Source: Candidatus Limnocylindria bacterium (GTDB lineage: Bacteria > Chloroflexota > Limnocylindria > QHBO01). From it: DNA of 64,000 nucleotides. The translations under genes were made by a program, and so were the position numbers. Shown in pieces: positions 52,356 to 62,304 of this stretch. Location: positions 8,347 to 72,346 of the forward strand of contig DASUFJ010000021.1 of the NCBI GenBank assembly GCA_036274575.1, in the 5' to 3' direction. The notes under the pieces were generated by a model that saw only the letters and a list, made by a program, of their open reading frames with translations, searched no databases and had not been told where the DNA came from. Within the stretch, counting starts at the first letter, position 1, and every line of letters starts with the position of its first letter.

Positions 52356-52724
52356 TCAGCGATGCGAGTGGGCGGGCCGTGCCCTCAACGCATCGGCGAG
52401 CACCTGCGCCTCGTTGTGGTCGCGGTCGCGAGCCCCATACAGGAGCGTGACGCGATCGTGGTGTCGCTCGACATCCTGGACAAGGTCCAGCAACTGCGCA
52501 TGGCCCTTCAGCTCGGCGGTGTAGCGCACCTGGAACTCGGGCCAGCGCTCCACGGCGTGGCCGAACCACTTCCGCAGCTCGGTAGTCGGCCCAAGATCTC
52601 GCAACCACAGATCGACGTCTGCCGCCGCGCGGGTCAGGCCGCGGGGCCACAGCCGATCCACGAGAACGCGGTAACCGTCCTCTGGAGCGGGTGGGTCGTA
52701 GACGCGCTTCACGTTGATGCTCAT
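52356..52724 (-). CDS. DUF488-family protein
   Basis: ATG at 52724. Motifs KRVYDPPAPEDGYRVLVDRLWPRGL, LRKWFGH and LLYGARD match the DUF488 pattern. Confidence 0.8.
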   Translation of the reverse strand: MSINVKRVYDPPAPEDGYRVLVDRLWPRGLTRAAADVDLWLRDLGPTTELRKWFGHAVERWPEFQVRYTAELKGHAQLLDLVQDVERHHDRVTLLYGARDRDHNEAQVLADALRARPAHSHR

Positions 52725-52728
52725 GGCT

Positions 52729-53481
52729 TCAGTACCCGGTGAACTCCTCGGTCCGGATGTCGTCCTCGTCGGTCCCGGAGTCGACGAGCATCCGGCGTAG
52801 TCCCTGTACCATCCCGGGCGGGCCGGTGAGGTAGTAGATCGCACCGCCCACGCCGCCGAGGTGGCGCTCCAGCATCTCGCTGTCGATGTGACCGCGCTCG
52901 CCTTCCCAGGACTCGTTGGCGGCGATGGCCGACATGCTGGGAATGAACCTGAGGTTGGGATCGCTCTCGGCCAGCTCGCGGATCTCCTCGAGGAATGCCG
53001 CGTCCTCCGGCCGGCGGTTGGCATAGAAGACGAACACCGGATAGCGGAGTCCGCCGCCACCTCCGCGCGCCGCCTCGACGAGGATGCTGCGGAAGGGCGT
53101 GATGCCGATGCCTCCGGTGAGGACGACGGCGGGCCGCTCAGCGGAGTGGAGGCGCAGGTCGCCGAACGGGCCCTCGATCCTGACCCGCGTCCCGAGCGGC
53201 ATGGCCTGGAGGACGCGCTTGAATGCGGTATCCCGCAGGCGGGTCGTGATCATGATCTCGTCCTCGCTCGGCGCGCTCGAGATCGAGAAGCCTCGCGTGT
53301 TGCCCTCGGCATCGGTCTCGGGAGGGTCGAGCAACGTGATGTCGATGAACTGACCGGCCCGGAATGACCACCCCGCCGGCTTGGTGAAGCGAAACGTCAT
53401 CGTGCGCTCCGCGACGAGCTCGCGGCCCAGGAGCGCCGCCTCGAAGATCGGCCATGCCGTCGTCGTCGCTGTCGCCGTCAT
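52729..53481 (-). CDS. ferredoxin-NADP reductase-type FAD/NAD(P)-binding oxidoreductase (no FeS domain)
   Basis: ATG at 53481. FAD motif RGFSISS and NAD(P) motif LTGGIGITP. C-terminal TEEFTGY. Confidence 0.85.
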   Translation of the reverse strand: MTATATTTAWPIFEAALLGRELVAERTMTFRFTKPAGWSFRAGQFIDITLLDPPETDAEGNTRGFSISSAPSEDEIMITTRLRDTAFKRVLQAMPLGTRVRIEGPFGDLRLHSAERPAVVLTGGIGITPFRSILVEAARGGGGGLRYPVFVFYANRRPEDAAFLEEIRELAESDPNLRFIPSMSAIAANESWEGERGHIDSEMLERHLGGVGGAIYYLTGPPGMVQGLRRMLVDSGTDEDDIRTEEFTGY

Positions 53482-53488
53482 GGCTGGG

Positions 53489-54514
53489 TCACGCGGCGGC
53501 TGCGACCGGCAGCCGGGCTGCGACGAGGCGGATGAGGTCGGCCATGCGGCAGCTGAATCCCCATTCGTTGTCGTACCAGGTGATGACCTTGACCAGCGTT
53601 CCACCAATGACCATCGTCATTCCCGCGTCGACGATGCTGGAGCGGCTGTCGCCCCGAAAGTCGGACGAGACGAGCGGCTCCTCGCTGACTCCCAGGATGC
53701 CCTCCATCGGCCCGGATTCGGCAGCATGGAACGCGGCATTCAGCTCTTCGACGGAAGTGGGGCGACTGACGTCCGCCGTGAAGTCGACGACGCTCACGGT
53801 GGGCGTCGGGACGCGCAGGCTGAACCCGTCGAACTTGCCGTCGAGCTCGGGCATCACGAGCGCGAGCGCCTTGGTCGCACCACTCGTCGTGGGGACGATG
53901 TTCTGCGCGGCGGCCCGCGCTCTGCGCGGGTCTTTGTGCCCGGTGTCGAGGAGGCGCTGCGAGGTCGTGTACGAGTGAACGGTGTTCATCAGACCGCGCT
54001 CGATGGAGACGAGGTCGTGGACGACCTTGACGGCCGGGGCGAGGCAGTTCGTGGTGCAGGACGCGGCGCTGATGAGATGGTGCCGCTCGGGATCGTAGGT
54101 GTCCTGGTTGACGCCGAGGACGATGGTGACGTCGGCGCCACGCGCCGGGGCGCTGACGATCACCTTCTTCGCGCCCGCCTCGAGGTGGGCGTCCGCCTGA
54201 CCGGGTTCGCGGAACCGTCCAGTCGACTCGAGGACGACATCCACACCGAGGTCACCCCACGGCAGCCGAGCCGGATCGGCCTCCTTGAACACGCGGATCT
54301 CGTGACCGTCGACCACGATGGCGTCGTCCGTCGACTCAACGGAGCCCGGATACGCTCCGTAGGTCGAGTCGTGCTTGAACAGCAGCGCGTTGAGGGACGG
54401 ATCCACCAGGTCGTTGACGGCCACGACATCGATCGAGGGATCGCGCTGGAGCAGTGCACGCAGCGACTGCCGCCCGATTCGTCCGAAGCCGTTGATTGCA
54501 ACTCGCGCTGCCAT
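53489..54514 (-). CDS. gap: type I glyceraldehyde-3-phosphate dehydrogenase
   Basis: ATG at 54514 preceded by GAGGAG. Motifs INGFGRIGR, active site SCTTNC and WYDNEWG. Confidence 0.95.
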
Positions 54515-54627
54515 GGACCGTCGCTCCTCGTCGCACTCGACCTGTTGAGTCAACCCTCAGGCTAGGGAGCGACCGTGACGGAGCCGGGCAAACGCCATGA
54601 ACAGAGGGTGAACAGGCCGAGGTCGGG

Positions 54628-54633
54628 TAGGCT
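54628..54633 (+). promoter_or_regulatory. candidate -10 hexamer (TAGGCT, TANNNT type) placed for a leaderless ptsH transcript
   Basis: The hexamer ends 6 nt before the GTG start at 54640, and there is no usable SD spacing in between. This is an inference only. Confidence 0.3.
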
Positions 54634-54639
54634 GGGGAG

Positions 54640-54945
54640 GTGCGAACCGTCGAACTGGTGATCCACAACCCGAGCGGCCTGCACGCTCGCCCGGCGACGG
54701 TGTTCACGGATGCCGCCGGCAGGTTCCAATCGAAGATCACGATCGAGAACCTCACGCGGGGCAGGCCGGCGGTTGACGCCAAGTCGACCCTCATGCTGCT
54801 CACCTCCGGCGTGGCGCGGGACCACAGGATCCGGCTGGTGGCTGACGGCCCGGACGACGACCAGGCCATCGCGCAGCTCGTCGAGCTCATCGAGTCCGGC
54901 CTCGGAGAGGGCCCGGGCGCGCCGGAACCGGTCGTCAGGGAGTAG
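54640..54945 (+). CDS. ptsH: phosphocarrier protein HPr
   Basis: The GTG start places the active-site His at residue 15 (GLHARPA). A Ser46-like KS is present (VDAKSTLMLL). Confidence 0.88.
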   Translation: MRTVELVIHNPSGLHARPATVFTDAAGRFQSKITIENLTRGRPAVDAKSTLMLLTSGVARDHRIRLVADGPDDDQAIAQLVELIESGLGEGPGAPEPVVRE

Positions 54946-56659
54946 CGGCCACCAGCTCGCCGAGTCGGGCGCGCGCGGGAGCGGCCGATCCCTCGCCGAG
55001 CGCCTTTCGCATCACGGCGCTGAGCTGCCGATGATGGGCACCGCGAATGGCGCGCCGCACGGCCGGAAGGCCCGATGCGGCCATGCTGAGGGAGCGCACG
55101 CCCAGGCCCACGAGCGCCAGGGCCGAGACCGGATCTCCGGCCATCTCGCCGCAGACCGAGATCTCGATCCCGGCCCGGTCGCCGGCGTCGACGGCCATCC
55201 GGACCAGTCGCAGCACGGCGGGATGCAGCGGGTCGCGATAGCGCTCGAGGCGTGGGTTGGTGCGGTCGACGGCGACCGTGTACTGCAGCAGGTCGTTCGT
55301 GCCCAGGCTCGCGAACCCGATCCGCCCGAAGTACGCGTCACTCACCAGGACTGACGACGGGATCTCGAGCATCACGCCGAGGTTCACAGCGCCGATGGGG
55401 ATGGACTCGGCCGCCAGCTCACGCCTCGCCTGCTCCGCGAGCTCGTGCAGGAGGTCGACGTCCCCCGCGTCCGCCACCATCGGCGCCATCACCTTCAGCC
55501 GTCCCGCGGTGGCGGCCCGGTAGCAGGCCCGCAGCTGGGTGACGAAGAGACCGCGCTCGACATCGGCGAGACGGAGTGCGCGAACGCCGAGGAACGGGTT
55601 GGCCTCCGGGGCGATCGGCAGGTACGGGATTGCCTTGTCACCGCCGACGTCCAGCAGCCGGACCGTGACCGGACGCGGGGCGAAGGCGCGGACGACGCGC
55701 TCGTAGGCAGCCGCCTGCTCCTCTTCTGACGGCGGCAACGATCGCTCGAGGAAGAGGAACTCCGTCCTGAACAGGCCGACGCCGTCCGCGCCGAGCTCGA
55801 TGGCGGACTCGCTCTCGTCGGGGCCGCCGATGTTGGCGAGGAGCGCCACCTCCACGCCGTCTGACGTCACGGCCGGTCGGCCGGCCTCGCGCAGGTCGGC
55901 ATCGTGCCGCTGCCGATCCCGATCCGTTGCCGCGTCGATGCTGGCCGCCGTCCCTGTGTCGGGATCGATGACCACAGCGCCGGTCCCGCCATCGATCGCG
56001 ATCTCGGAGGCGGGGCCGAGGGCATCCAGCAGGTCGCCCACGCCGACAACCGCGGGAATCCCATAGGCTCGGGCGAGGATCGCGGCGTGGGCCGTCGGCG
56101 ACGAGCCCTCGAGCGCGATGCCGAGGAGCCGCTCGCGGGGCAGGGTCGCGGTCACCGACGGCGGCAGGTCGGCGGCGACCACGATCGTTGGCCTGTCCAG
56201 CCCGGTGGCGGAGGCAGCGTCCGGGATCCCGCTGAGGCGCCTCGCGATCCGTTGCCCGACGTCGATGACGTCCGCCGCGCGAGCCGACAGCACCTCGTCG
56301 TCGAGGGACCGCAGCTGGTCGGCGAACGAGTCGGCCGCGGCCTGGACCGCCGCGACCGCATCCTCGCCGTGGTCATCGATGCGCCCAGTGGCCAGCGTGA
56401 CGAGCGCCGGGTCGCGGGCGATGCTCGCCTGGGCCCGAAAGATTGCGCCCTCCTCCGGATGGCCGTCCCCTTCCACGCGGGCCGCGATCTCCTCGAGCTC
56501 GGCGCTCGCTGCCACCGTGGCGTCGTGAAGGCGCTGGGTCTCGCGCATGGCATCGCCGGGCTCAATGCGCCCGCCCGTCGGGGCGCTGACGGCATCGATT
56601 CGGAGCCAGGGTCCGCGGACGACCCCGGGAGAGGCTCCGATCCCTTGCAATCGCTTCAC
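54935..56659 (-). CDS. ptsI: phosphoenolpyruvate--protein phosphotransferase (PTS Enzyme I)
   Basis: 574 aa. Phospho-His region GSSPTAHAAILAR. PEP-utilising C-domain motifs LFRTEFLF, GTNDLLQY and SVCGEMAGDP. The GTG start overlaps the upstream HPr-like stop. Confidence 0.93.
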   Translation of the reverse strand: MKRLQGIGASPGVVRGPWLRIDAVSAPTGGRIEPGDAMRETQRLHDATVAASAELEEIAARVEGDGHPEEGAIFRAQASIARDPALVTLATGRIDDHGEDAVAAVQAAADSFADQLRSLDDEVLSARAADVIDVGQRIARRLSGIPDAASATGLDRPTIVVAADLPPSVTATLPRERLLGIALEGSSPTAHAAILARAYGIPAVVGVGDLLDALGPASEIAIDGGTGAVVIDPDTGTAASIDAATDRDRQRHDADLREAGRPAVTSDGVEVALLANIGGPDESESAIELGADGVGLFRTEFLFLERSLPPSEEEQAAAYERVVRAFAPRPVTVRLLDVGGDKAIPYLPIAPEANPFLGVRALRLADVERGLFVTQLRACYRAATAGRLKVMAPMVADAGDVDLLHELAEQARRELAAESIPIGAVNLGVMLEIPSSVLVSDAYFGRIGFASLGTNDLLQYTVAVDRTNPRLERYRDPLHPAVLRLVRMAVDAGDRAGIEISVCGEMAGDPVSALALVGLGVRSLSMAASGLPAVRRAIRGAHHRQLSAVMRKALGEGSAAPARARLGELVAATP

Positions 56660-56943
56660 AGCGACGGCGCGGGATGGCAGACCCCGGCCTCGAGCAGGTC
56701 GCCGATGGCCTCGATCGCCGCCGCCTCATCGGCGCCCTCGGCCGCGATCCGAACGCGATCGCCGGTGCGGATGCCGGAGCCGATGAGTGCGAGCATGCTC
56801 CGGGCGTCGAGCTGCGAGGCGCTGCCGTCGAGGTTCGTGATCGACACGTCTGCCGTGAGATCGCCGATCGCCTCACCGATTCGGCGTGCGGCGCGGGGAT
56901 GCAGACCGTAACGATCGCGGAAGACCACGTCCCTCGAAGTCAT
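56656..56943 (-). CDS. HPr-family phosphocarrier protein (second paralogue)
   Basis: ATG at 56943. His15 sits in GLHPRAA and a Ser46-like RS in LDARSMLAL. 95 aa. Confidence 0.8.
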   Translation of the reverse strand: MTSRDVVFRDRYGLHPRAARRIGEAIGDLTADVSITNLDGSASQLDARSMLALIGSGIRTGDRVRIAAEGADEAAAIEAIGDLLEAGVCHPAPSL

Positions 56944-57016
56944 GACAGTCGCTCCCACTCGATGGGCGGCCGCGACGCAACGTGGCGTCACGGCCGCCCG
57001 AGATTTCGGGTCGCCG

Positions 57017-58531
57017 TCAGGCGGCGCTCTGCGCCTCGGCGGCCGTATGCGTCCCGGCTTCCTGTTCGGGCGCCCCGCCGGGCACCCAGCCGGTGTCGAC
57101 GAATCGCCGCTGGAACCAGCTCGCGACCACGAGCAGGAAGCCACACAGGACCGCGACGCCGATCGCCGCCACGTTGCCCTCGATGCGGGCGATGTTCCCG
57201 ACGATGAAGCCGAACCACTGGAAGTCGGCGTCTCCGAAGGTCGTCCCCTGGAATCCGATGGCGCCCATGACCGGGATCAGGAACGCCGCGAACAGGGTGA
57301 TGATCAGCCCGTTGACGAATCCGCCGGCGACGGCACCGCGGCGTCCGCCGGTTGCGTTGCCGAACACGCCGGCCGTCCCACCCGTGAAGAAGTGCGGGAT
57401 CATGCCCGGCAGGATGAGCGGGACGACGAGCGCCGCCCCCAGCCAGGCCCACAGGATCCCGAACCCGAGCATGCCACCGGCGACGCTCGCCAGGAACCCG
57501 ACGATCACGGCGTTGGGCGCGTACGGGAACGAGATGGGGCAATCGAGCGCGGGAACGGCGCCCGGGATGACGCGCTCGGCGATGCCGGCGAAGGCGGGCA
57601 CGATCTCGCCGAGGATGGTCCGGACGCCGAGCAGGATGACGGCAACGCCACCTCCGAAGAGGAGCGCCTGGTTGAACATCGTGCTCAAGAGGCCGAGGAA
57701 TCCACCTGCGGCGCCGGCGGCACCGGCAAAGCCGGCATCGGTCACCGCCTGGATGGCGGGTCCCTCTCCGACGCGGACCACGAAGATCGCCGAGAGCACG
57801 AGATAGATGATGATCATGGCGACGGCCGTGCCGACCATCGGGTCACGTAGGAAGCGGAGGCCTTGCGGGAATTCCATGTCCTCGGTGCTCTTCGAACCGC
57901 GGCCGACGAGCTGGCCCGTCACGCCGGCGGCGATGTAGCCCAGGGATCCGAAATGGCCCATCGCCACCGGCTCGTTTCCCGTGACCTTCTTCATCCACGG
58001 CATCGTGAACGCCGGCATGATCACCATCATCGTGGCGAGGCCGAGGGCAGCCACCAGGATCTGCACGATGGGGGCGACGTTGGCGTTGTACAGCACGACG
58101 GTGAGCACCGTGGCCATGAACAGCATGTGATGACCGGTCAGGAAGACGTAGCGCAGCGGAGTGAGCCGCGCGATCACCAATGAGCCAATCACTCCGATGA
58201 ACATCGCAAACGCGATGTTCTGGGCGACGTCGGGGATGTCGCTGACGATTGCGGTGATGGCCTCGTTCGTGGGGACGACGCCGGAGACGCCGAAGGAGCC
58301 CGTGATGAGCGCTCCGAGCGGCGTCAGGGCCCCAATGACCGCGCCGGCGCCGATGCCCAGGATGATGAAGCCCAGCGTCGCCTTCAGCGCGCCGCCGACC
58401 ACGTCCCCGGCGCCCTTCCGAGACGCGACGAGCGCGCTCAGCGTCATCAACCCCACGAGATATGCGGGTACGCCGAAGATGTCCTTGGCGACCCAGTTCA
58501 CGATGTAGTTCAGCTGATCCACAACGACCAC
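57017..58531 (-). CDS. PTS EIIC, ascorbate (SgaT/UlaA) family
   Basis: 504 aa polytopic membrane protein with UlaA-like N-terminus (...IVNWVAKDIFGVPAYLVGLMTL...). GTG start at 58531, or at 58522 with better SD spacing. Confidence 0.88.
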   Translation of the reverse strand: MVVVDQLNYIVNWVAKDIFGVPAYLVGLMTLSALVASRKGAGDVVGGALKATLGFIILGIGAGAVIGALTPLGALITGSFGVSGVVPTNEAITAIVSDIPDVAQNIAFAMFIGVIGSLVIARLTPLRYVFLTGHHMLFMATVLTVVLYNANVAPIVQILVAALGLATMMVIMPAFTMPWMKKVTGNEPVAMGHFGSLGYIAAGVTGQLVGRGSKSTEDMEFPQGLRFLRDPMVGTAVAMIIIYLVLSAIFVVRVGEGPAIQAVTDAGFAGAAGAAGGFLGLLSTMFNQALLFGGGVAVILLGVRTILGEIVPAFAGIAERVIPGAVPALDCPISFPYAPNAVIVGFLASVAGGMLGFGILWAWLGAALVVPLILPGMIPHFFTGGTAGVFGNATGGRRGAVAGGFVNGLIITLFAAFLIPVMGAIGFQGTTFGDADFQWFGFIVGNIARIEGNVAAIGVAVLCGFLLVVASWFQRRFVDTGWVPGGAPEQEAGTHTAAEAQSAA

Positions 58532-58601
58532 CCTTCTCTCATTGGCGGCCCGGGAGGGGTCGCCACGCTCTTTGCGGTCCGTTCCCGGGCCACCACTTAA
58601 A

Positions 58602-58874
58602 TCAGTCGATCGCTGCCTTGAGCTTCGTCACCATCTCGCGCAGATCGATGAAATTCGAGATCGTCACGACCTTCGGCTTGACGGCTCCGAGCTGTGGAGC
58701 GAGCTCCTCTGAAGTGAGGATCAGGTCGGCCTTCGGGGCGATCGCGCGGGCGGTCCCGATGTCCGTGACCTCCAGCTCGGCTTCGAGCCCGAGCTCCTTG
58801 AGCGCCTTTTCGGCCTGCATCCGCAGGACGAGGGCGCTCCCGAGTCCCATGCCGCAGACCGCCAGGATCCTCAT
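58602..58874 (-). CDS. PTS EIIB (ascorbate/lactose type)
   Basis: 90 aa with an active-site Cys in MRILAVCGMGLGS. Confidence 0.85.
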   Translation of the reverse strand: MRILAVCGMGLGSALVLRMQAEKALKELGLEAELEVTDIGTARAIAPKADLILTSEELAPQLGAVKPKVVTISNFIDLREMVTKLKAAID

Positions 58875-59350
58875 GAGTGATCCCCCCGTTCGAAGCCGCG
58901 AACCATGCGGGCGACGTCGTCCGCGGTTTCGGCGCTCAGCAGCTCCTGTTGGCGCCCCTCGTCGGCCAGGAACTCGGCAAGGGTCGAGAGCGCAGTGACG
59001 TGACCGTCCTCGTCGGGTGCCGCCAGTCCAACGACCAGGCGGACCGGATCGTTCCTGCTATGCCCGAAGGTCACCGGTTCGGCAAGGGTCACCAGGCTCA
59101 TGCCTGCGCGAATGACCGCCGGCGACGGCCGCGAGTGCGCCAGCGCAATGCCGGGAGCGATCACGATGTACGGACCCAGCTCCTCGACGGCGGCGATCAT
59201 CTCGTCCGTGTAGGCGTCTGTGGTCGCGCCGCTCGACACGAGCGCGTCGCCGGCTTCCCGTATCGCAGCTCGCCAGTCGGCCGCGCTCGCCCCGATGCGG
59301 ATGGCATCGACCGACAGCAGCGTGGACAGCTCGGGCGCGGAGGCCGTCAT
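58871..59350 (-). CDS. PTS EIIA (EIIA-2, mannitol/fructose/ascorbate type)
   Basis: 159 aa with an active-site His in APGIALAHSRP. Overlaps both neighbouring genes by 4 nt. Confidence 0.85.
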   Translation of the reverse strand: MTASAPELSTLLSVDAIRIGASAADWRAAIREAGDALVSSGATTDAYTDEMIAAVEELGPYIVIAPGIALAHSRPSPAVIRAGMSLVTLAEPVTFGHSRNDPVRLVVGLAAPDEDGHVTALSTLAEFLADEGRQQELLSAETADDVARMVRGFERGDHS

Positions 59351-60045
59351 GACGCACCGGTACCGAGGGCGAGGACGGCGTGGCGTCGGTCCGGCCGCTC
59401 GACCGCCTGGGCCGTCTGCCAGTCCTTCCGGAACTGCACGATGCCGCGATCCGTCAGCGGGTGATGAACCATCTGGCGCAGCACCTTGATCGGGACCGTC
59501 GCGATGTGGGCGCCGGCCAGCGCGGCATCGGTGACGTGGCGGGGATGCCGGACGGAGGCGACCAGCACCTCTGCGGGCAGGCCGTGCATCCTCACGATGG
59601 CCGTCAGCTCCCTGATGACGCTCAGACCGTCTTCGTTGATGTCGTCCAGGCGGCCGACGAACGGCGAGAGGAGCGATGCTCCGGCCTTGGCCGCCAGGAG
59701 ACCCTGGTTGGCGTTGAAGATGAGTGTGCAGTTGGTCGAGATGCCTTCGGCGGAGAAGCGGGCGATCGCTTCGAGGCCCTCTTCGCTCATCGGCACCTTG
59801 ACGATGATGTTCGGCGCGAGCGTCGAGAAATGGCGGCCCTCGCTCAGCATTCCGTCGACGTCGTCGGCCACCACCTCGGCACTGACCGGACCGGACGTGA
59901 TCGCGCAGATCTCCTGGAGCACCGCGTCATAGCTGCCACCCACCTTCGCGAACAGGCTCGGGTTGGTGGTCACGCCGTCGAGCACACCCCAGCGAGACGC
60001 CGTGCGGATGTCATCGATGGCCGCCGTATCGAGAAAGATCTTCAT
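59347..60045 (-). CDS. tal: short (type 3B) transaldolase / fructose-6-phosphate aldolase family protein
   Basis: Motifs MKIFLDTA and GVTTNPSL, the Schiff-base Lys in IIVKVP, and SPFVGRLDD. 232 aa. Confidence 0.9.
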   Translation of the reverse strand: MKIFLDTAAIDDIRTASRWGVLDGVTTNPSLFAKVGGSYDAVLQEICAITSGPVSAEVVADDVDGMLSEGRHFSTLAPNIIVKVPMSEEGLEAIARFSAEGISTNCTLIFNANQGLLAAKAGASLLSPFVGRLDDINEDGLSVIRELTAIVRMHGLPAEVLVASVRHPRHVTDAALAGAHIATVPIKVLRQMVHHPLTDRGIVQFRKDWQTAQAVERPDRRHAVLALGTGAS

Positions 60046-60356
60046 GCCTCGTCCTGCGTTTCAGTGAGAATCGCGCCGTCCTGAACCTGGACCCGATGTG
60101 ACATGACCGGGCGTTGCGCCGGGCCACGAATGACCGCCCCGGTGGTCACGTCGAACTGGCTGCCGTGGCAGGCGCAGGTCACCGTCGTCCCGTCGAGGTC
60201 CCCGTTCGCGAGCGAGCAGCCCATGTGGGTGCACGTGTCATCGAACGCGTAGAGCTGGCCGCCGGCGTTCGTCACGTTCACCGCCGCGCCACCCACCTCG
60301 AACACGCGCATCTGCCCTTCGGGCACCGCGCCCACGTCACCGACCCGAACGAACAT
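60042..60356 (-). CDS. Rieske [2Fe-2S] ferredoxin
   Basis: CTHMGCSL ... CACHGSQF (CxH / CxxH ligands). 104 aa. Its stop overlaps the tal start (ATGA). Confidence 0.88.
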   Translation of the reverse strand: MFVRVGDVGAVPEGQMRVFEVGGAAVNVTNAGGQLYAFDDTCTHMGCSLANGDLDGTTVTCACHGSQFDVTTGAVIRGPAQRPVMSHRVQVQDGAILTETQDEA

Positions 60357-60441
60357 CAGCCATTTCCTCGCGACGCCAGCTCTTTGGATCGGCCCAGGTG
60401 ATCGATCCTCGTTGGCTCTTGGGCGACGCTAGTCCCGCGAC

Positions 60442-60516
60442 CTGAACGCGGGTTGGAACCGACGTGAACGTCGCGTGAACACTCCCGGCCGACCGGGACG
60501 TTCACTTGATGTTCAC
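60442..60516. promoter_or_regulatory. array of GTGAAC-type hexamers with about 11-bp periodicity, arranged as an extended palindrome
   Basis: cTGAAC 60442, tGGAAC 60454, GTGAAC 60464 and GTGAAC 60475. Central palindrome CCCGG-ccga-CCGGG. Inverted copies GTTCAC at 60500 and 60511. Lies between the divergent Rieske/PTS operon and the two-component operon. Confidence 0.5.
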
Positions 60517-60610
60517 CAGCATTCCCGCGCGACTTCAGGCGGCTGCCGTACGGTGGCGGGCCATCTCACTCGTCATAGCCCGAGGTTTCCCGGCGTATGC
60601 TTGGTTCTCG

Positions 60611-61609
60611 ATGCCGACCGAGGCACCACTACCCTCACCGCTCGGCGTGGCCGCCCTCGCGCTGGTCGGGGACGGAGTGACGGCCCCGGGCCTGGTCAGT
60701 CGTTTCGCGGAGCTGGACGCCCGGATCGATGAGCGTGCCGCCCAAGCGCGACTCGATGAGCTCGTGCGGCTGGGCCTCGTCCGCGTCCGTCGTCGGGCGG
60801 CTGACAACGATTGGTATGGCCTCACCCCCCTCGGCGAGAGGCTTCTGGGTGTCTCCTTCGCGGGGAATCGCGAGCAGGCGGAGCTGCTGGCGGAGATGGA
60901 ACAGATGCGCACCGACCTGCTGAGCACGATCGCACACGAGCTCAGGACGCCGCTGACGGCCGTTCGGACGAGCATCGGGCTCCTCCTCGATCCTGAAATC
61001 GAGCCGAGCTCCGAGGAGCACCAGGCCATGCTCGAGGCGATCGACCGGAACGCCACCCGGATGCATCGAGTGGTCGGCGAGATCCTGGAGCTGGCCCGAT
61101 TCCGTGCGGGCAGCGCCCAGCTGCAGCTTCGGCGCTTCGACGCGAGAGAGCTGGCGGAGTCGGCGATCGCATCGGTGTCGTCGCTCGTGGACGCGCATCG
61201 GCAGACGATTGAGCTCGACGCCCCGTCGGAGGCCGTCTGGGTCTTCGGCGACTACCGGCGCCTCGAGCAGGCCGTCGTCAACCTCCTGTCGAACGCTCAG
61301 AAGTACTCACCGGACGGGACGCCGATCCGCGTCTCGGTCGCGACCCAGGGACCGGAGGTCACCTGGACGGTTTCCGACTCTGGTCCGGGCATCGAACCCG
61401 CCGACCGGGCGCGGCTCTTCGAGCGATTCTTCGTGGCCCCGCGCAAGCGCTCCGAAGGGGTGCCGGGCATCGGCCTCGGGCTCCCGATCTCGCTCCTGAT
61501 CGTCCAGGCCCACGAGGGCCGAATCGACGTCGACAGCGAGCCGGGGGTCGGCAGCACCTTTCGCATCGCGGTTCCGGCAGCAGGGCCTGAGGGGGGACCG
61601 GGCGAATGA
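60611..61609 (+). CDS. cytoplasmic sensor histidine kinase with winged-helix-like N-terminal domain
   Basis: H-box STIAHELRTPL. N/G boxes LLSNAQKYSP, DSGPGIE and GIGLGLPIS. No TM helix. N-terminus contains LDELVRLGLVRVRRRAADNDWYGLTPLGERLL. The longest ORF starts at TTG 60506, but its first 35 aa are Arg-rich and overlap the repeat array. Confidence 0.85.
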   Translation: MPTEAPLPSPLGVAALALVGDGVTAPGLVSRFAELDARIDERAAQARLDELVRLGLVRVRRRAADNDWYGLTPLGERLLGVSFAGNREQAELLAEMEQMRTDLLSTIAHELRTPLTAVRTSIGLLLDPEIEPSSEEHQAMLEAIDRNATRMHRVVGEILELARFRAGSAQLQLRRFDARELAESAIASVSSLVDAHRQTIELDAPSEAVWVFGDYRRLEQAVVNLLSNAQKYSPDGTPIRVSVATQGPEVTWTVSDSGPGIEPADRARLFERFFVAPRKRSEGVPGIGLGLPISLLIVQAHEGRIDVDSEPGVGSTFRIAVPAAGPEGGPGE

Positions 61610-62304
61610 AGATCCTCGTGATCGACGACGAGCCCGACGTCATCGAGTCGGTCAGGCTCGGATTCACGCTTCAATGGCGCGAGGTTGATGTCATCGGCGT
61701 CGCCATGGGTGAGCCCGGGCTCGACGCGGTCGAACGCGAGCTTCCGGATCTCGTGCTGCTCGACATCGGCCTACCCGACATCGACGGCTTCGAGGTGCTG
61801 CGCCGGATTCGCGCGTTCTCCGACGTGCCCGTGGTGATGCTCACGGCCCATGACGAGTCAATGGACAAGGTCAAGGGCCTGGAGCTCGGCGCGGACGACT
61901 ACGTGACGAAGCCGTTCAACCATCTCGAATTGATGGCACGCGTCAAGGCACTCCTGCGCCGGCTCGACATGCCGGCACCATCGAGCCGCACGCCGTCATT
62001 TCGGTCGGGCGACCTGGAGGTCGACTTCACCCGACAGGAGGCCCGATTGGCGGGTCAACGCCTCGACCTCACGCCCACCGAGTACAAGCTGCTCTACCAC
62101 CTCGTCCGGAACGCCGGTCACATCCTCCCGCACGCGACGCTGCTCGCGAAGGTCTGGGGCCGCGACTACGTGGACGAGGTCGATTACATCCGGGTCTACG
62201 TCCGCCGGCTGCGAGAGAAGCTCCGCGACGACCCCGACCAACCGCGCTACATCCGGACCGAACGCGGCCTGGGCTATCGGTTCATGGTCGACGAGCCCGC
62301 CTGA
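61606..62304 (+). CDS. OmpR/PhoB-family DNA-binding response regulator
   Basis: REC motifs KILVIDDEPD, LVLLDIGLPD, VMLTA and YVTKPF. Winged helix: LTPTEYKLLYHLVRNAG...IRTERGLGYRF. The ATG overlaps the kinase stop. Confidence 0.93.
   Translation: MKILVIDDEPDVIESVRLGFTLQWREVDVIGVAMGEPGLDAVERELPDLVLLDIGLPDIDGFEVLRRIRAFSDVPVVMLTAHDESMDKVKGLELGADDYVTKPFNHLELMARVKALLRRLDMPAPSSRTPSFRSGDLEVDFTRQEARLAGQRLDLTPTEYKLLYHLVRNAGHILPHATLLAKVWGRDYVDEVDYIRVYVRRLREKLRDDPDQPRYIRTERGLGYRFMVDEPA

Follow-up and report, generated by a model that had tools for sequence, protein, structure and literature searches.

A window of 64,000 nucleotides from the genome of a Candidatus Limnocylindria bacterium (Chloroflexota) carries a complete phosphoenolpyruvate (PEP)-dependent phosphotransferase system (PTS) of the SgaT/UlaA family, directly downstream of genes for a Rieske [2Fe-2S] ferredoxin and a short transaldolase. 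We propose that this locus is probably composite: a PTS cassette, whose substrate would not be L-ascorbate and whose phosphorylated product would pass to transaldolase (Tal) and transketolase (Tkt), would have been joined to an older block containing the Rieske gene and a transaldolase paralogue, named here Tal-R. Limnocylindria are abundant, uncultured Chloroflexota of soil and freshwater, and our literature search found no report on a PTS in these bacteria, on Rieske-transaldolase clusters or on a sedoheptulose PTS. The locus documents, at the genomic level, a full PTS equipped with two HPr genes in Limnocylindria. The source genome is a metagenome-assembled genome (MAG) of 2.7 Mb in 141 contigs, 95% complete and not closed, whose nearest relatives carry the labels Candidatus Limnocylindria or Limnocylindrales (Chloroflexota); the window lies on its contig C21 and has a GC content of about 68-73%. 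The genes concerned are the following.

60042..60356, minus strand: Rieske [2Fe-2S] ferredoxin, first gene of the co-directional run (PF00355, 76 bits)
59347..60045, minus strand: short (type 3B) transaldolase, Tal-R (TAL_FSA, 194 bits)
58871..59350, minus strand: EIIA (EIIA_2, UlaC-like; PF00359, 110 bits)
58602..58874, minus strand: EIIB (UlaB-like, PTS_IIB; PF02302, 53 bits; Cys7 read from the sequence)
58532..58601, minus strand: EIIB/EIIC intercistronic gap of 70 nt (from the coordinates of the open reading frames, ORFs)
57017..58531, minus strand: EIIC of the SgaT/UlaA family (EIIC-GAT; PF03611, 380 bits)
56944..57016, minus strand: EIIC/HPr2 intercistronic gap of 73 nt (EIIC stop at 57017, HPr2 ATG at 56943)
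56656..56943, minus strand: HPr2, operon-internal HPr paralogue (PF00381, 63 bits)
54935..56659, minus strand: Enzyme I (EI), PEP-protein phosphotransferase (TIGR01417, 441 bits for a cut-off of 342)
54640..54945, plus strand: HPr1, convergent with EI, the 3' ends overlapping by 11 nt (PF00381, 88 bits)

The seven minus-strand genes are intact and stand in the order given by an earlier, sequence-only reading of this DNA: Rieske, Tal, EIIA, EIIB, SgaT/UlaA-type EIIC, HPr2 and EI. That reading had counted 4-nt start/stop overlaps at five of the six junctions and a single gap, of 70 nt, before EIIC. Such overlaps are found at four junctions (Rieske/Tal, Tal/EIIA, EIIA/EIIB and HPr2/EI); the 70-nt gap is indeed present and is not the only one, a second gap of 73 nt separating EIIC from HPr2. 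The Tal/EIIA overlap is peculiar to the source genome, genome G011 having a gap of 100 nt at that junction, and the EIIB/EIIC gap is also present in G011, where it measures 45 nt. The 3' end of the Tal gene (59347-59400) encodes a C-terminal tail of 18 aa, VERPDRRHAVLALGTGAS, which relatives do not have. Because this tail runs into the EIIA start, the original stop codon was probably lost, giving rise to the ATGA overlap.

The PTS is complete, as had been claimed, and every residue of the phosphorelay can be read: the TAH and CGEMAGD motifs of EI, with its His and Cys, His15 and Arg17 of both HPr1 and HPr2 (His15 of HPr2 within GLHPR), the active-site His of EIIA within GIALAHS and Cys7 of EIIB within AVCGMG. 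The SgaT/UlaA-type EIIC, the separate UlaB-like EIIB and UlaC-like EIIA_2 and the complete phosphorelay place the system in the PTS L-ascorbate family (TC 4.A.7). A search of the whole MAG gives one EIIC-GAT match, one EIIA_2 match, one EI and no EIIC of the Glc/Fru type; the locus is the sole PTS found in this Limnocylindria genome. HPr1 adjoins EI in most related loci, and HPr2 lies downstream of EIIC in most of those that reach that far.

To our knowledge, L-ascorbate is the only firmly assigned substrate of the SgaT/UlaA family. The substrate of the present system is probably not L-ascorbate, because no gene for UlaG, UlaD, UlaE or UlaF accompanies it, EIIC is only 26% identical to E. coli UlaA (ecUlaA), and five of the eleven ascorbate contacts of the latter differ. 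The absence of ulaG, ulaD, ulaE and ulaF, which had led the sequence-only reading to describe an ascorbate-family PTS with an unassigned substrate, holds for the window and also for the MAG as a whole (95% complete), in which tblastn with the E. coli proteins gives no hit at E<=1e-3. Ula genes likewise adjoin none of the 74 related loci outside Limnocylindria, some of which belong to complete genomes. The ascorbate contacts of ecUlaA are T86, Y87, H135, I136, Q139, H194, Q195, D314, I358, F362 and M410 (PMC6048161). In EIIC, Y87 is replaced by Asn (the alignment near positions 86/87 being uncertain), I136 by His, Q139 by Phe, Q195 by Phe and M410 by Asp, so that the contact set as a whole is not conserved. 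This pattern is uniform in the aligned EIICs of Limnocylindria and Coprothermobacter, the latter having Tyr for Phe at two sites.

The system and E. coli UlaABC (SgaTBA, TC 4.A.7) share the UlaA-type EIIC (PF03611), the UlaB-type EIIB with an N-terminal Cys, the UlaC-type EIIA_2 and the residues of the elevator core, H135, H194, R288, D314, I358 and F362, which form a scaffold kept in EIIC. They differ, beyond the contacts and the low identity, in gene order (A-B-C here, C-B-A in E. coli), in the presence here of EI and two HPr genes within the locus, in the absence of UlaR as well as of ulaG/D/E/F, and in the linked enzymes, which are Tal, Tkt and GAPDH. Family members devoid of Ula genes are widespread, and they are called 'ascorbate-specific' by default annotation.

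The enzyme encoded upstream of EIIA had been described as an aldolase-type member of the transaldolase/fructose-6-phosphate aldolase (FSA) family that would act directly on a phosphorylated ketose. Its active-site residues argue otherwise and are those of a transaldolase. The hallmark residues of FSA, in FsaA numbering, are Gln59, the catalytic Tyr131 and Ala129 (PMC13259622); they align with Glu57, Phe130 and Ser128 of Tal. The two enzymes have in common the fold, the family (TIGR00875 above cut-off) and the Schiff-base Lys, Lys83 of Tal aligning with Lys85 of FsaA, and Asp6, Asn28, Lys83 and Thr107 are all kept. Among solved structures, short transaldolases are matched over the full length with E-values of 1e-67 to 1e-70, compared with 1e-42 for E. 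coli FSA. These short (subfamily 3B) transaldolases, from T. thermophilus (1WX0), B. subtilis (3R8R), T. maritima (1VPX) and T. acidophilum (3S0C), share with Tal by alignment the whole catalytic set Asp6, Asn28, Glu57, Lys83, Thr107 and Phe130, in which Lys83, Glu57 and Phe130 are the residues expected of subfamily 3B; the pair Glu60/Phe132 of TacTal occupies the positions equivalent to Gln59/Tyr131 of FsaA. Choosing between FSA-type and Tal-type residues, a check that the sequence-only reading had put forward, thus gives a Tal-type answer. As a transaldolase, the enzyme would therefore need an aldose-phosphate acceptor and would not split a ketose phosphate alone.

This transaldolase is a dedicated paralogue. 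The MAG has two further TAL_FSA genes, one of which is a long form beside a transketolase gene on C11, in the usual tkt-tal arrangement. In a tree of 100 short Tal sequences, all the Rieske-linked ones (23/23) fall in a clade of 30 with an SH-like support of 0.978, the sister of which consists of 61 stand-alone Tals, and single MAGs can hold one Tal of each clade (L081/L211, L084/L208 and L162/L221). At the 85% level, the Rieske-linked and stand-alone clades cannot be told apart by any alignment column. The Tal of the window differs from the short transaldolases named above by its place in this Rieske-tied clade and by its non-conserved tail.

The link between this type of PTS and transketolase or transaldolase does not look accidental when neighbourhoods are compared. 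Most compared loci are contigs of related Limnocylindria MAGs; the neighbours recorded are those matched in tblastn by proteins encoded in the window or by a small number of further queries. Two layouts are seen among the 39 EIIC-related loci. That of the window, found in about eight loci, reads Rieske-Tal-EIIA-EIIB-EIIC-HPr2-EI, with HPr1 on the other strand, followed by Tkt and GAPDH; the Tkt gene has been lost in the window itself. The second, found in about 20 loci, reads tkt(-) HPr1(+) EI(-) EIIA-EIIB-EIIC-HPr2(+) and contains neither Tal nor Rieske. A Tkt divergent from HPr1 occurs in both (full-length in L006, L011, L012, L035 and L039 for the window layout; L014, L016, L020, L027 and L031 for the second). 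In other loci of the second layout (L022, L028, L040, L046 and L047), Tkt is split in two ORFs of about 270 aa each, corresponding to the N- and C-terminal halves, which directly follow EIIC and precede HPr2 where the contig extends that far. In relatives, transketolase is a more constant partner of the PTS than transaldolase.

The same association is found at a distance. Among the 74 related loci outside Limnocylindria, mostly from Actinomycetota and with EIICs 47-56% identical, Tkt lies within 6 kb of EIIC in 19. Streptomyces fuscus (L303) has the order EIIC-Tkt-Tal, and in Cryobacterium the run ROK-EIIA-EIIB-EIIC is divergent from genes for Tkt and a DeoC-like aldolase. One contig (L240/L241) shows a PRD regulator-EIIB-EIIC-transaldolase of staphylococcal type, and another (L239) a PRD regulator-GmhA-like isomerase-EIIB-EIIC-Tkt-GmhA-like isomerase; from their PRD regulators, both are taken to be Firmicute-like. 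The relatives from Caldisericum and Coprothermobacter have as neighbour either a GFO/IDH/MocA oxidoreductase or a TIM-barrel protein resembling xylose isomerase, which gives no clear clue to the substrate. Tkt or Tal therefore stands beside this EIIC subfamily in three phylum-level groups (Chloroflexota, Actinomycetota and Firmicute-like) and in varied gene orders, which bears out the earlier statement that the PTS is chained to a transaldolase-family enzyme.

A published parallel exists in S. pneumoniae, in which the Asc-type PTS SP2129-30 is accompanied by a split tkt, SP2128/SP2127, and its substrate has been inferred only as 'pentoses' (Bidossi et al., 2012, PMC3302838). There, too, ascorbate-family EIIB and EIIC are followed by transketolase genes without Ula enzymes, and the Limnocylindria relatives with a split Tkt after EIIC resemble the SP2127/SP2128 arrangement in gene order. 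The pneumococcal system has no EIIA of its own and is under PRD regulator control; the present locus includes EIIA, EI and both HPr genes, lacks a PRD regulator and, in the source genome, carries Tal in the place of Tkt.

The relation of the Rieske gene to the PTS is of another kind. The Rieske protein is a stand-alone domain of 104 aa with the ligands C42-x-H44...C61-x-x-H64 and no signal or TAT sequence; its closest solved structures are dioxygenase ferredoxins and a small b6f-type Rieske protein (E about 1e-15). Like BphF (1FQT), TodB (3DQY), CarAc (1VCK) and 2I7F, which it matches with E-values of about 1e-14 to 1e-15, it is a soluble single-domain protein with CxH...CxxH ligands and a length of about 105 aa, and, as with oxygenase ferredoxins, GR-type or FNR-type reductases adjoin it in relatives. 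Its motif pair CTHMGC...CACHGS has an extra Cys pair, kept in 119 of 120 homologues, which is present in the b6f-type 8HN2 and absent from the aligned dioxygenase ferredoxins; this pair would predict a midpoint potential above that of BphF-type ferredoxins. A soluble domain of about 100 aa with its ligands and a nearby NAD(P)H reductase are there, as in multicomponent oxygenases, but no terminal oxygenase is found in the cluster, nor any oxygenase in the window neighbourhood or in the annotated related loci; the usual neighbours are Tal, GAPDH, DUF488 and cupredoxin. Larger reading frames with Rieske domains occur elsewhere in the MAG, and more than 2,000 homologues are found in metagenomes.

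Synteny counts separate the Rieske gene from the PTS. When Rieske orthologue loci with at least 60% identity and enough downstream sequence are considered (n=57), a short Tal lies directly downstream in 22, and only seven of these have a PTS, the other 15 having none. Two of the seven (L092 and L116) carry a different PTS lineage, with an EIIC 52-55% identical and the order HPr-EI-EIIA-EIIB-EIIC, divergent from Rieske-Tal. Conversely, a directly upstream Rieske orthologue is missing from 75 of 79 short-Tal loci, and one of the other four has a Rieske match of only 38% identity. In five genomes with Rieske-less PTS loci, no Rieske orthologue is found (best match 38% identical), and three hold a short Tal orthologue elsewhere. 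The Rieske-tal-EIIABC arrangement, which the sequence-only reading had proposed to seek in other genomes, occurs in about eight loci, and most PTS loci lack the Rieske gene. The sequence-only reading had held that a non-conserved Rieske adjacency would speak against its view, and this is largely what is observed, with about 20 related PTS loci devoid of Rieske and 15 of 22 Rieske-Tal pairs devoid of PTS; nor did we find support for its suggestion of a redox gating of uptake. As judged from sequence and neighbourhoods, the Rieske ferredoxin does not belong to the PTS: its relation to the PTS looks positional, that to Tal-R is conserved, and the relation of the PTS to Tal/Tkt looks functional.

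In contigs labelled Gemmatimonadota (L115, L124 and L133), the Rieske-Tal pair is also present, with Rieske proteins 60-66% and Tals 77-79% identical, whereas the GAPDH and Tkt that flank it in L115 share no more than 32-48% identity with their Limnocylindria counterparts. Either the pair was transferred laterally as one unit, it would seem, or the contigs were mis-binned, the Gemmatimonadota and Acidimicrobiia labels of some contigs being possible binning errors. A cupredoxin gene lies directly upstream of Rieske in many relatives (for instance L073, L081, L084 and L093), and not in the window.

The remaining members of the older block, and the region preceding the operon, are as follows.

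53489..54514, minus strand: GAPDH-2, second GAPDH copy (TIGR01534, 410 bits)
52729..53481, minus strand: FNR-like NAD(P)H flavoprotein reductase (PF00175)
52356..52724, minus strand: DUF488 protein (PF04343, PF22752)
60357..60505, no strand: divergent intergenic region of 149 nt between Rieske and the histidine kinase (ORF coordinates)
60506..62304, plus strand: histidine kinase and OmpR-type response regulator, divergent from the operon (Pfam)

GAPDH-2 is 65% identical to the gap gene product encoded directly upstream of pgk on C100 (C100:1682-3845). It is followed after 7 nt by the FNR-like reductase, then by DUF488, and this trio recurs in relatives. By synteny, DUF488 is a constant member of the Rieske block, and the FNR-like flavoprotein is, from its sequence and position, a candidate electron donor for the ferredoxin. 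Of 59 Rieske orthologue loci, 26 have a reductase gene (FNR-like or GR-type) within 8 kb, and in 10 of 21 more distant homologues such a gene comes next downstream; a GR-type reductase adjoins Rieske in L076, in L077 and in distant homologues, and the FNR-like gene, 6.5 kb downstream of Rieske in the window, is contiguous with it in L078. Blocks without PTS take several forms: cupredoxin-Rieske-Tal-PK(-)-GAPDH-FNR in L073 (the same order being found in the frameshifted L072), Rieske-GAPDH-DUF488 in L074, Rieske-FNR-DUF488 in L078, and FdR-Rieske-Tal.

In such PTS-less relatives, pyruvate kinase (PK) occupies the very position, between Tal and GAPDH, that the PTS has in the window, and no pyruvate kinase (PF00224) is found in the 95%-complete MAG, although 14 of 14 control genomes have one. 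A replacement of PK by the PTS was considered and rejected, since G002, G011, G014 and G052 have both and many members of the class have neither, in a tally that includes the unpublished genome G033, on which no conclusion depends.

The histidine kinase/OmpR-type pair travels with GreA, DUF488 and Rieske in relatives without PTS (L072, L081, L084, L093 and L096). Since it is kept with Rieske in the absence of a PTS, this pair, if it controls the operon at all, would regulate the Rieske block and not the PTS. The 149-nt region is likely to be the promoter and operator region; a scan of positions 54300-60700 on both strands for promoter and terminator consensus sequences gave no match, which is uninformative in a Chloroflexota host of 70% GC.

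On this basis, the locus could work as two modules. In the first, EI, the two HPr proteins, EIIA, EIIB and EIIC would import and phosphorylate, at the expense of PEP, a carbohydrate other than ascorbate. As Tkt/Tal is the recurrent partner of EIIC in three phylum-level groups, we infer that the phosphorylated product is a Tkt/Tal substrate. It would enter the non-oxidative pentose-phosphate pathway directly, through the transaldolase here and through transketolase in most relatives, and flow on to GAPDH, without requiring a lactonase, a decarboxylase or an epimerase. Sedoheptulose-7-phosphate (S7P) and erythrose-4-phosphate (E4P) are used by both Tkt and Tal and are not part of glycolysis, and pentulose-5-phosphates fit Tkt. 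The best-fitting substrates would thus be: (i) a C7 sugar giving S7P, (ii) a C4 sugar giving E4P, or (iii) a pentulose giving xylulose-5-phosphate or ribulose-5-phosphate. The second module would be the older, lineage-typical block, composed of Rieske, Tal-R, sometimes Tkt or PK, GAPDH-2, the FNR-like reductase and DUF488, with the PTS cassette lying between Tal-R and the remainder. The Rieske protein would act as a soluble electron carrier fed by the flavoprotein reductase, and would be co-transcribed with the PTS only through the position of the cassette.

The Tal/Tkt neighbours, the GmhA-like isomerases (one case) and the pocket signature would narrow the substrate to a few sugar phosphates. 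The GmhA-like genes of L239 lean towards a heptose, in what is a single locus. A bolder version can be put forward tentatively, and is on the whole doubtful: the EIIC subfamily marked by His136, Phe139, Phe195 and Asp410 (ecUlaA numbering) might be a PTS for a sugar class for which no PTS is known, heptose/sedoheptulose (yielding S7P) or tetrose/tetrulose (yielding E4P), the product merging into central metabolism by a single Tal or Tkt step. In Limnocylindria it would work through a dedicated parallel Tal-R/Tkt/GAPDH-2 shunt, coupled by Rieske and FNR to some redox acceptor. Separately, the conserved pairing of Rieske with a transaldolase paralogue may hint that the pentose-phosphate pathway has a redox connection.

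Several observations weigh against the composite reading, and they are best considered together with the rival explanations. The substrate class that we propose is drawn from gene context, and the synteny counts are not independent, because many loci come from related Limnocylindria MAGs. Besides, EIIC scores 454 bits against NF006919 ('PTS ascorbate transporter subunit IIC'), above its cut-off of 380, so that automatic annotation names it ascorbate-specific; this broad model being passed, public records label its relatives in the same way. The system could then be an ordinary L-ascorbate PTS equivalent to UlaABC, a reading to which the conserved scaffold residues lend themselves, its catabolic genes having been missed in a MAG that is not closed or being replaced by non-homologous enzymes. 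We regard this as very improbable: the more specific E. coli-type model NF009549 gives 387 bits for a cut-off of 890, identity to ecUlaA is low, the polar contacts Y87, Q139 and Q195 have become Asn, Phe and Phe and M410 has become Asp, and UlaG/D/E/F are absent both from the MAG and from beside the relatives outside Limnocylindria, even in complete genomes. Many relatives also have no Tkt or Tal nearby, among them most Streptomyces loci, which are orphan EIIA-EIIC pairs, and several Limnocylindria PTS loci without Rieske-Tal. Together with the variable genes downstream of HPr2 (primase, sigma factor, peptidases) and with the two HPr paralogues, which could indicate a regulatory branch, they could mean that the PTS is metabolically unlinked to Tal, Tkt and GAPDH and lies by chance in a chromosome region rich in central-carbon genes, or that it is mainly a regulatory phosphorelay. 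This seems quite unlikely, as Tkt/Tal is found beside the PTS in three phylum-level groups, in differing gene orders and also inside the operon, and as a full-length EIIC with conserved core residues would argue for transport.

Other observations bring the Rieske gene closer to the PTS than the composite reading would have it. Two PTS lineages, that of the window and that of L092/L116, stand beside Rieske-Tal, and in the source genome 4-nt overlaps run from Rieske through Tal and EIIA to EIIB; Rieske-Tal may therefore be tied functionally to the PTS. In its strongest form, such a tie would make Rieske, Tal-R, PTS, GAPDH-2 and FNR one integrated pathway, in which the Rieske protein and its reductase serve a sugar-modifying oxygenase or demethylase, or couple the redox state to Tal-R and GAPDH-2. 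That Tal-R and GAPDH-2 are dedicated paralogues and not the housekeeping copies, and that the extra Cys pair of the Rieske protein is so widely kept, would fit such a pathway, as would the Gemmatimonadota-labelled contigs L115, L124 and L133, in which Rieske-Tal is kept amid divergent flanking genes, suggesting that the pair moves as a unit. We nevertheless hold an integrated pathway to be unlikely. No oxygenase partner is found in the window or in related loci, no active-site change specific to Tal-R was detected, Rieske is missing from most PTS loci of this subfamily, most Rieske-Tal pairs lack a PTS, and in 35 of the 57 Rieske orthologue loci no Tal follows directly on the same strand. The composite reading, in which the Tal/Tkt link of the PTS is functional and its proximity to Rieske positional, remains the one that we favour.

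Some minor observations complete the picture. In three contigs of long-read MAGs (L011, L039 and L072), the orthologues of EI, EIIC, Tal, Tkt and GAPDH appear in multiple frame-shifted pieces, which look like assembly error rather than pseudogenes. The public runs listed as containing the locus are all DNA metagenomes of soil, rhizosphere or groundwater (20/20), with no RNA run among them. Finally, in Mycobacterium aurum (L262:8750-10267), a 505-aa FAD-dependent oxidoreductase of the DAO family with a C-terminal Rieske domain is encoded 1.2 kb downstream of a related EIIC, on the opposite strand, a proximity that may be a coincidence.

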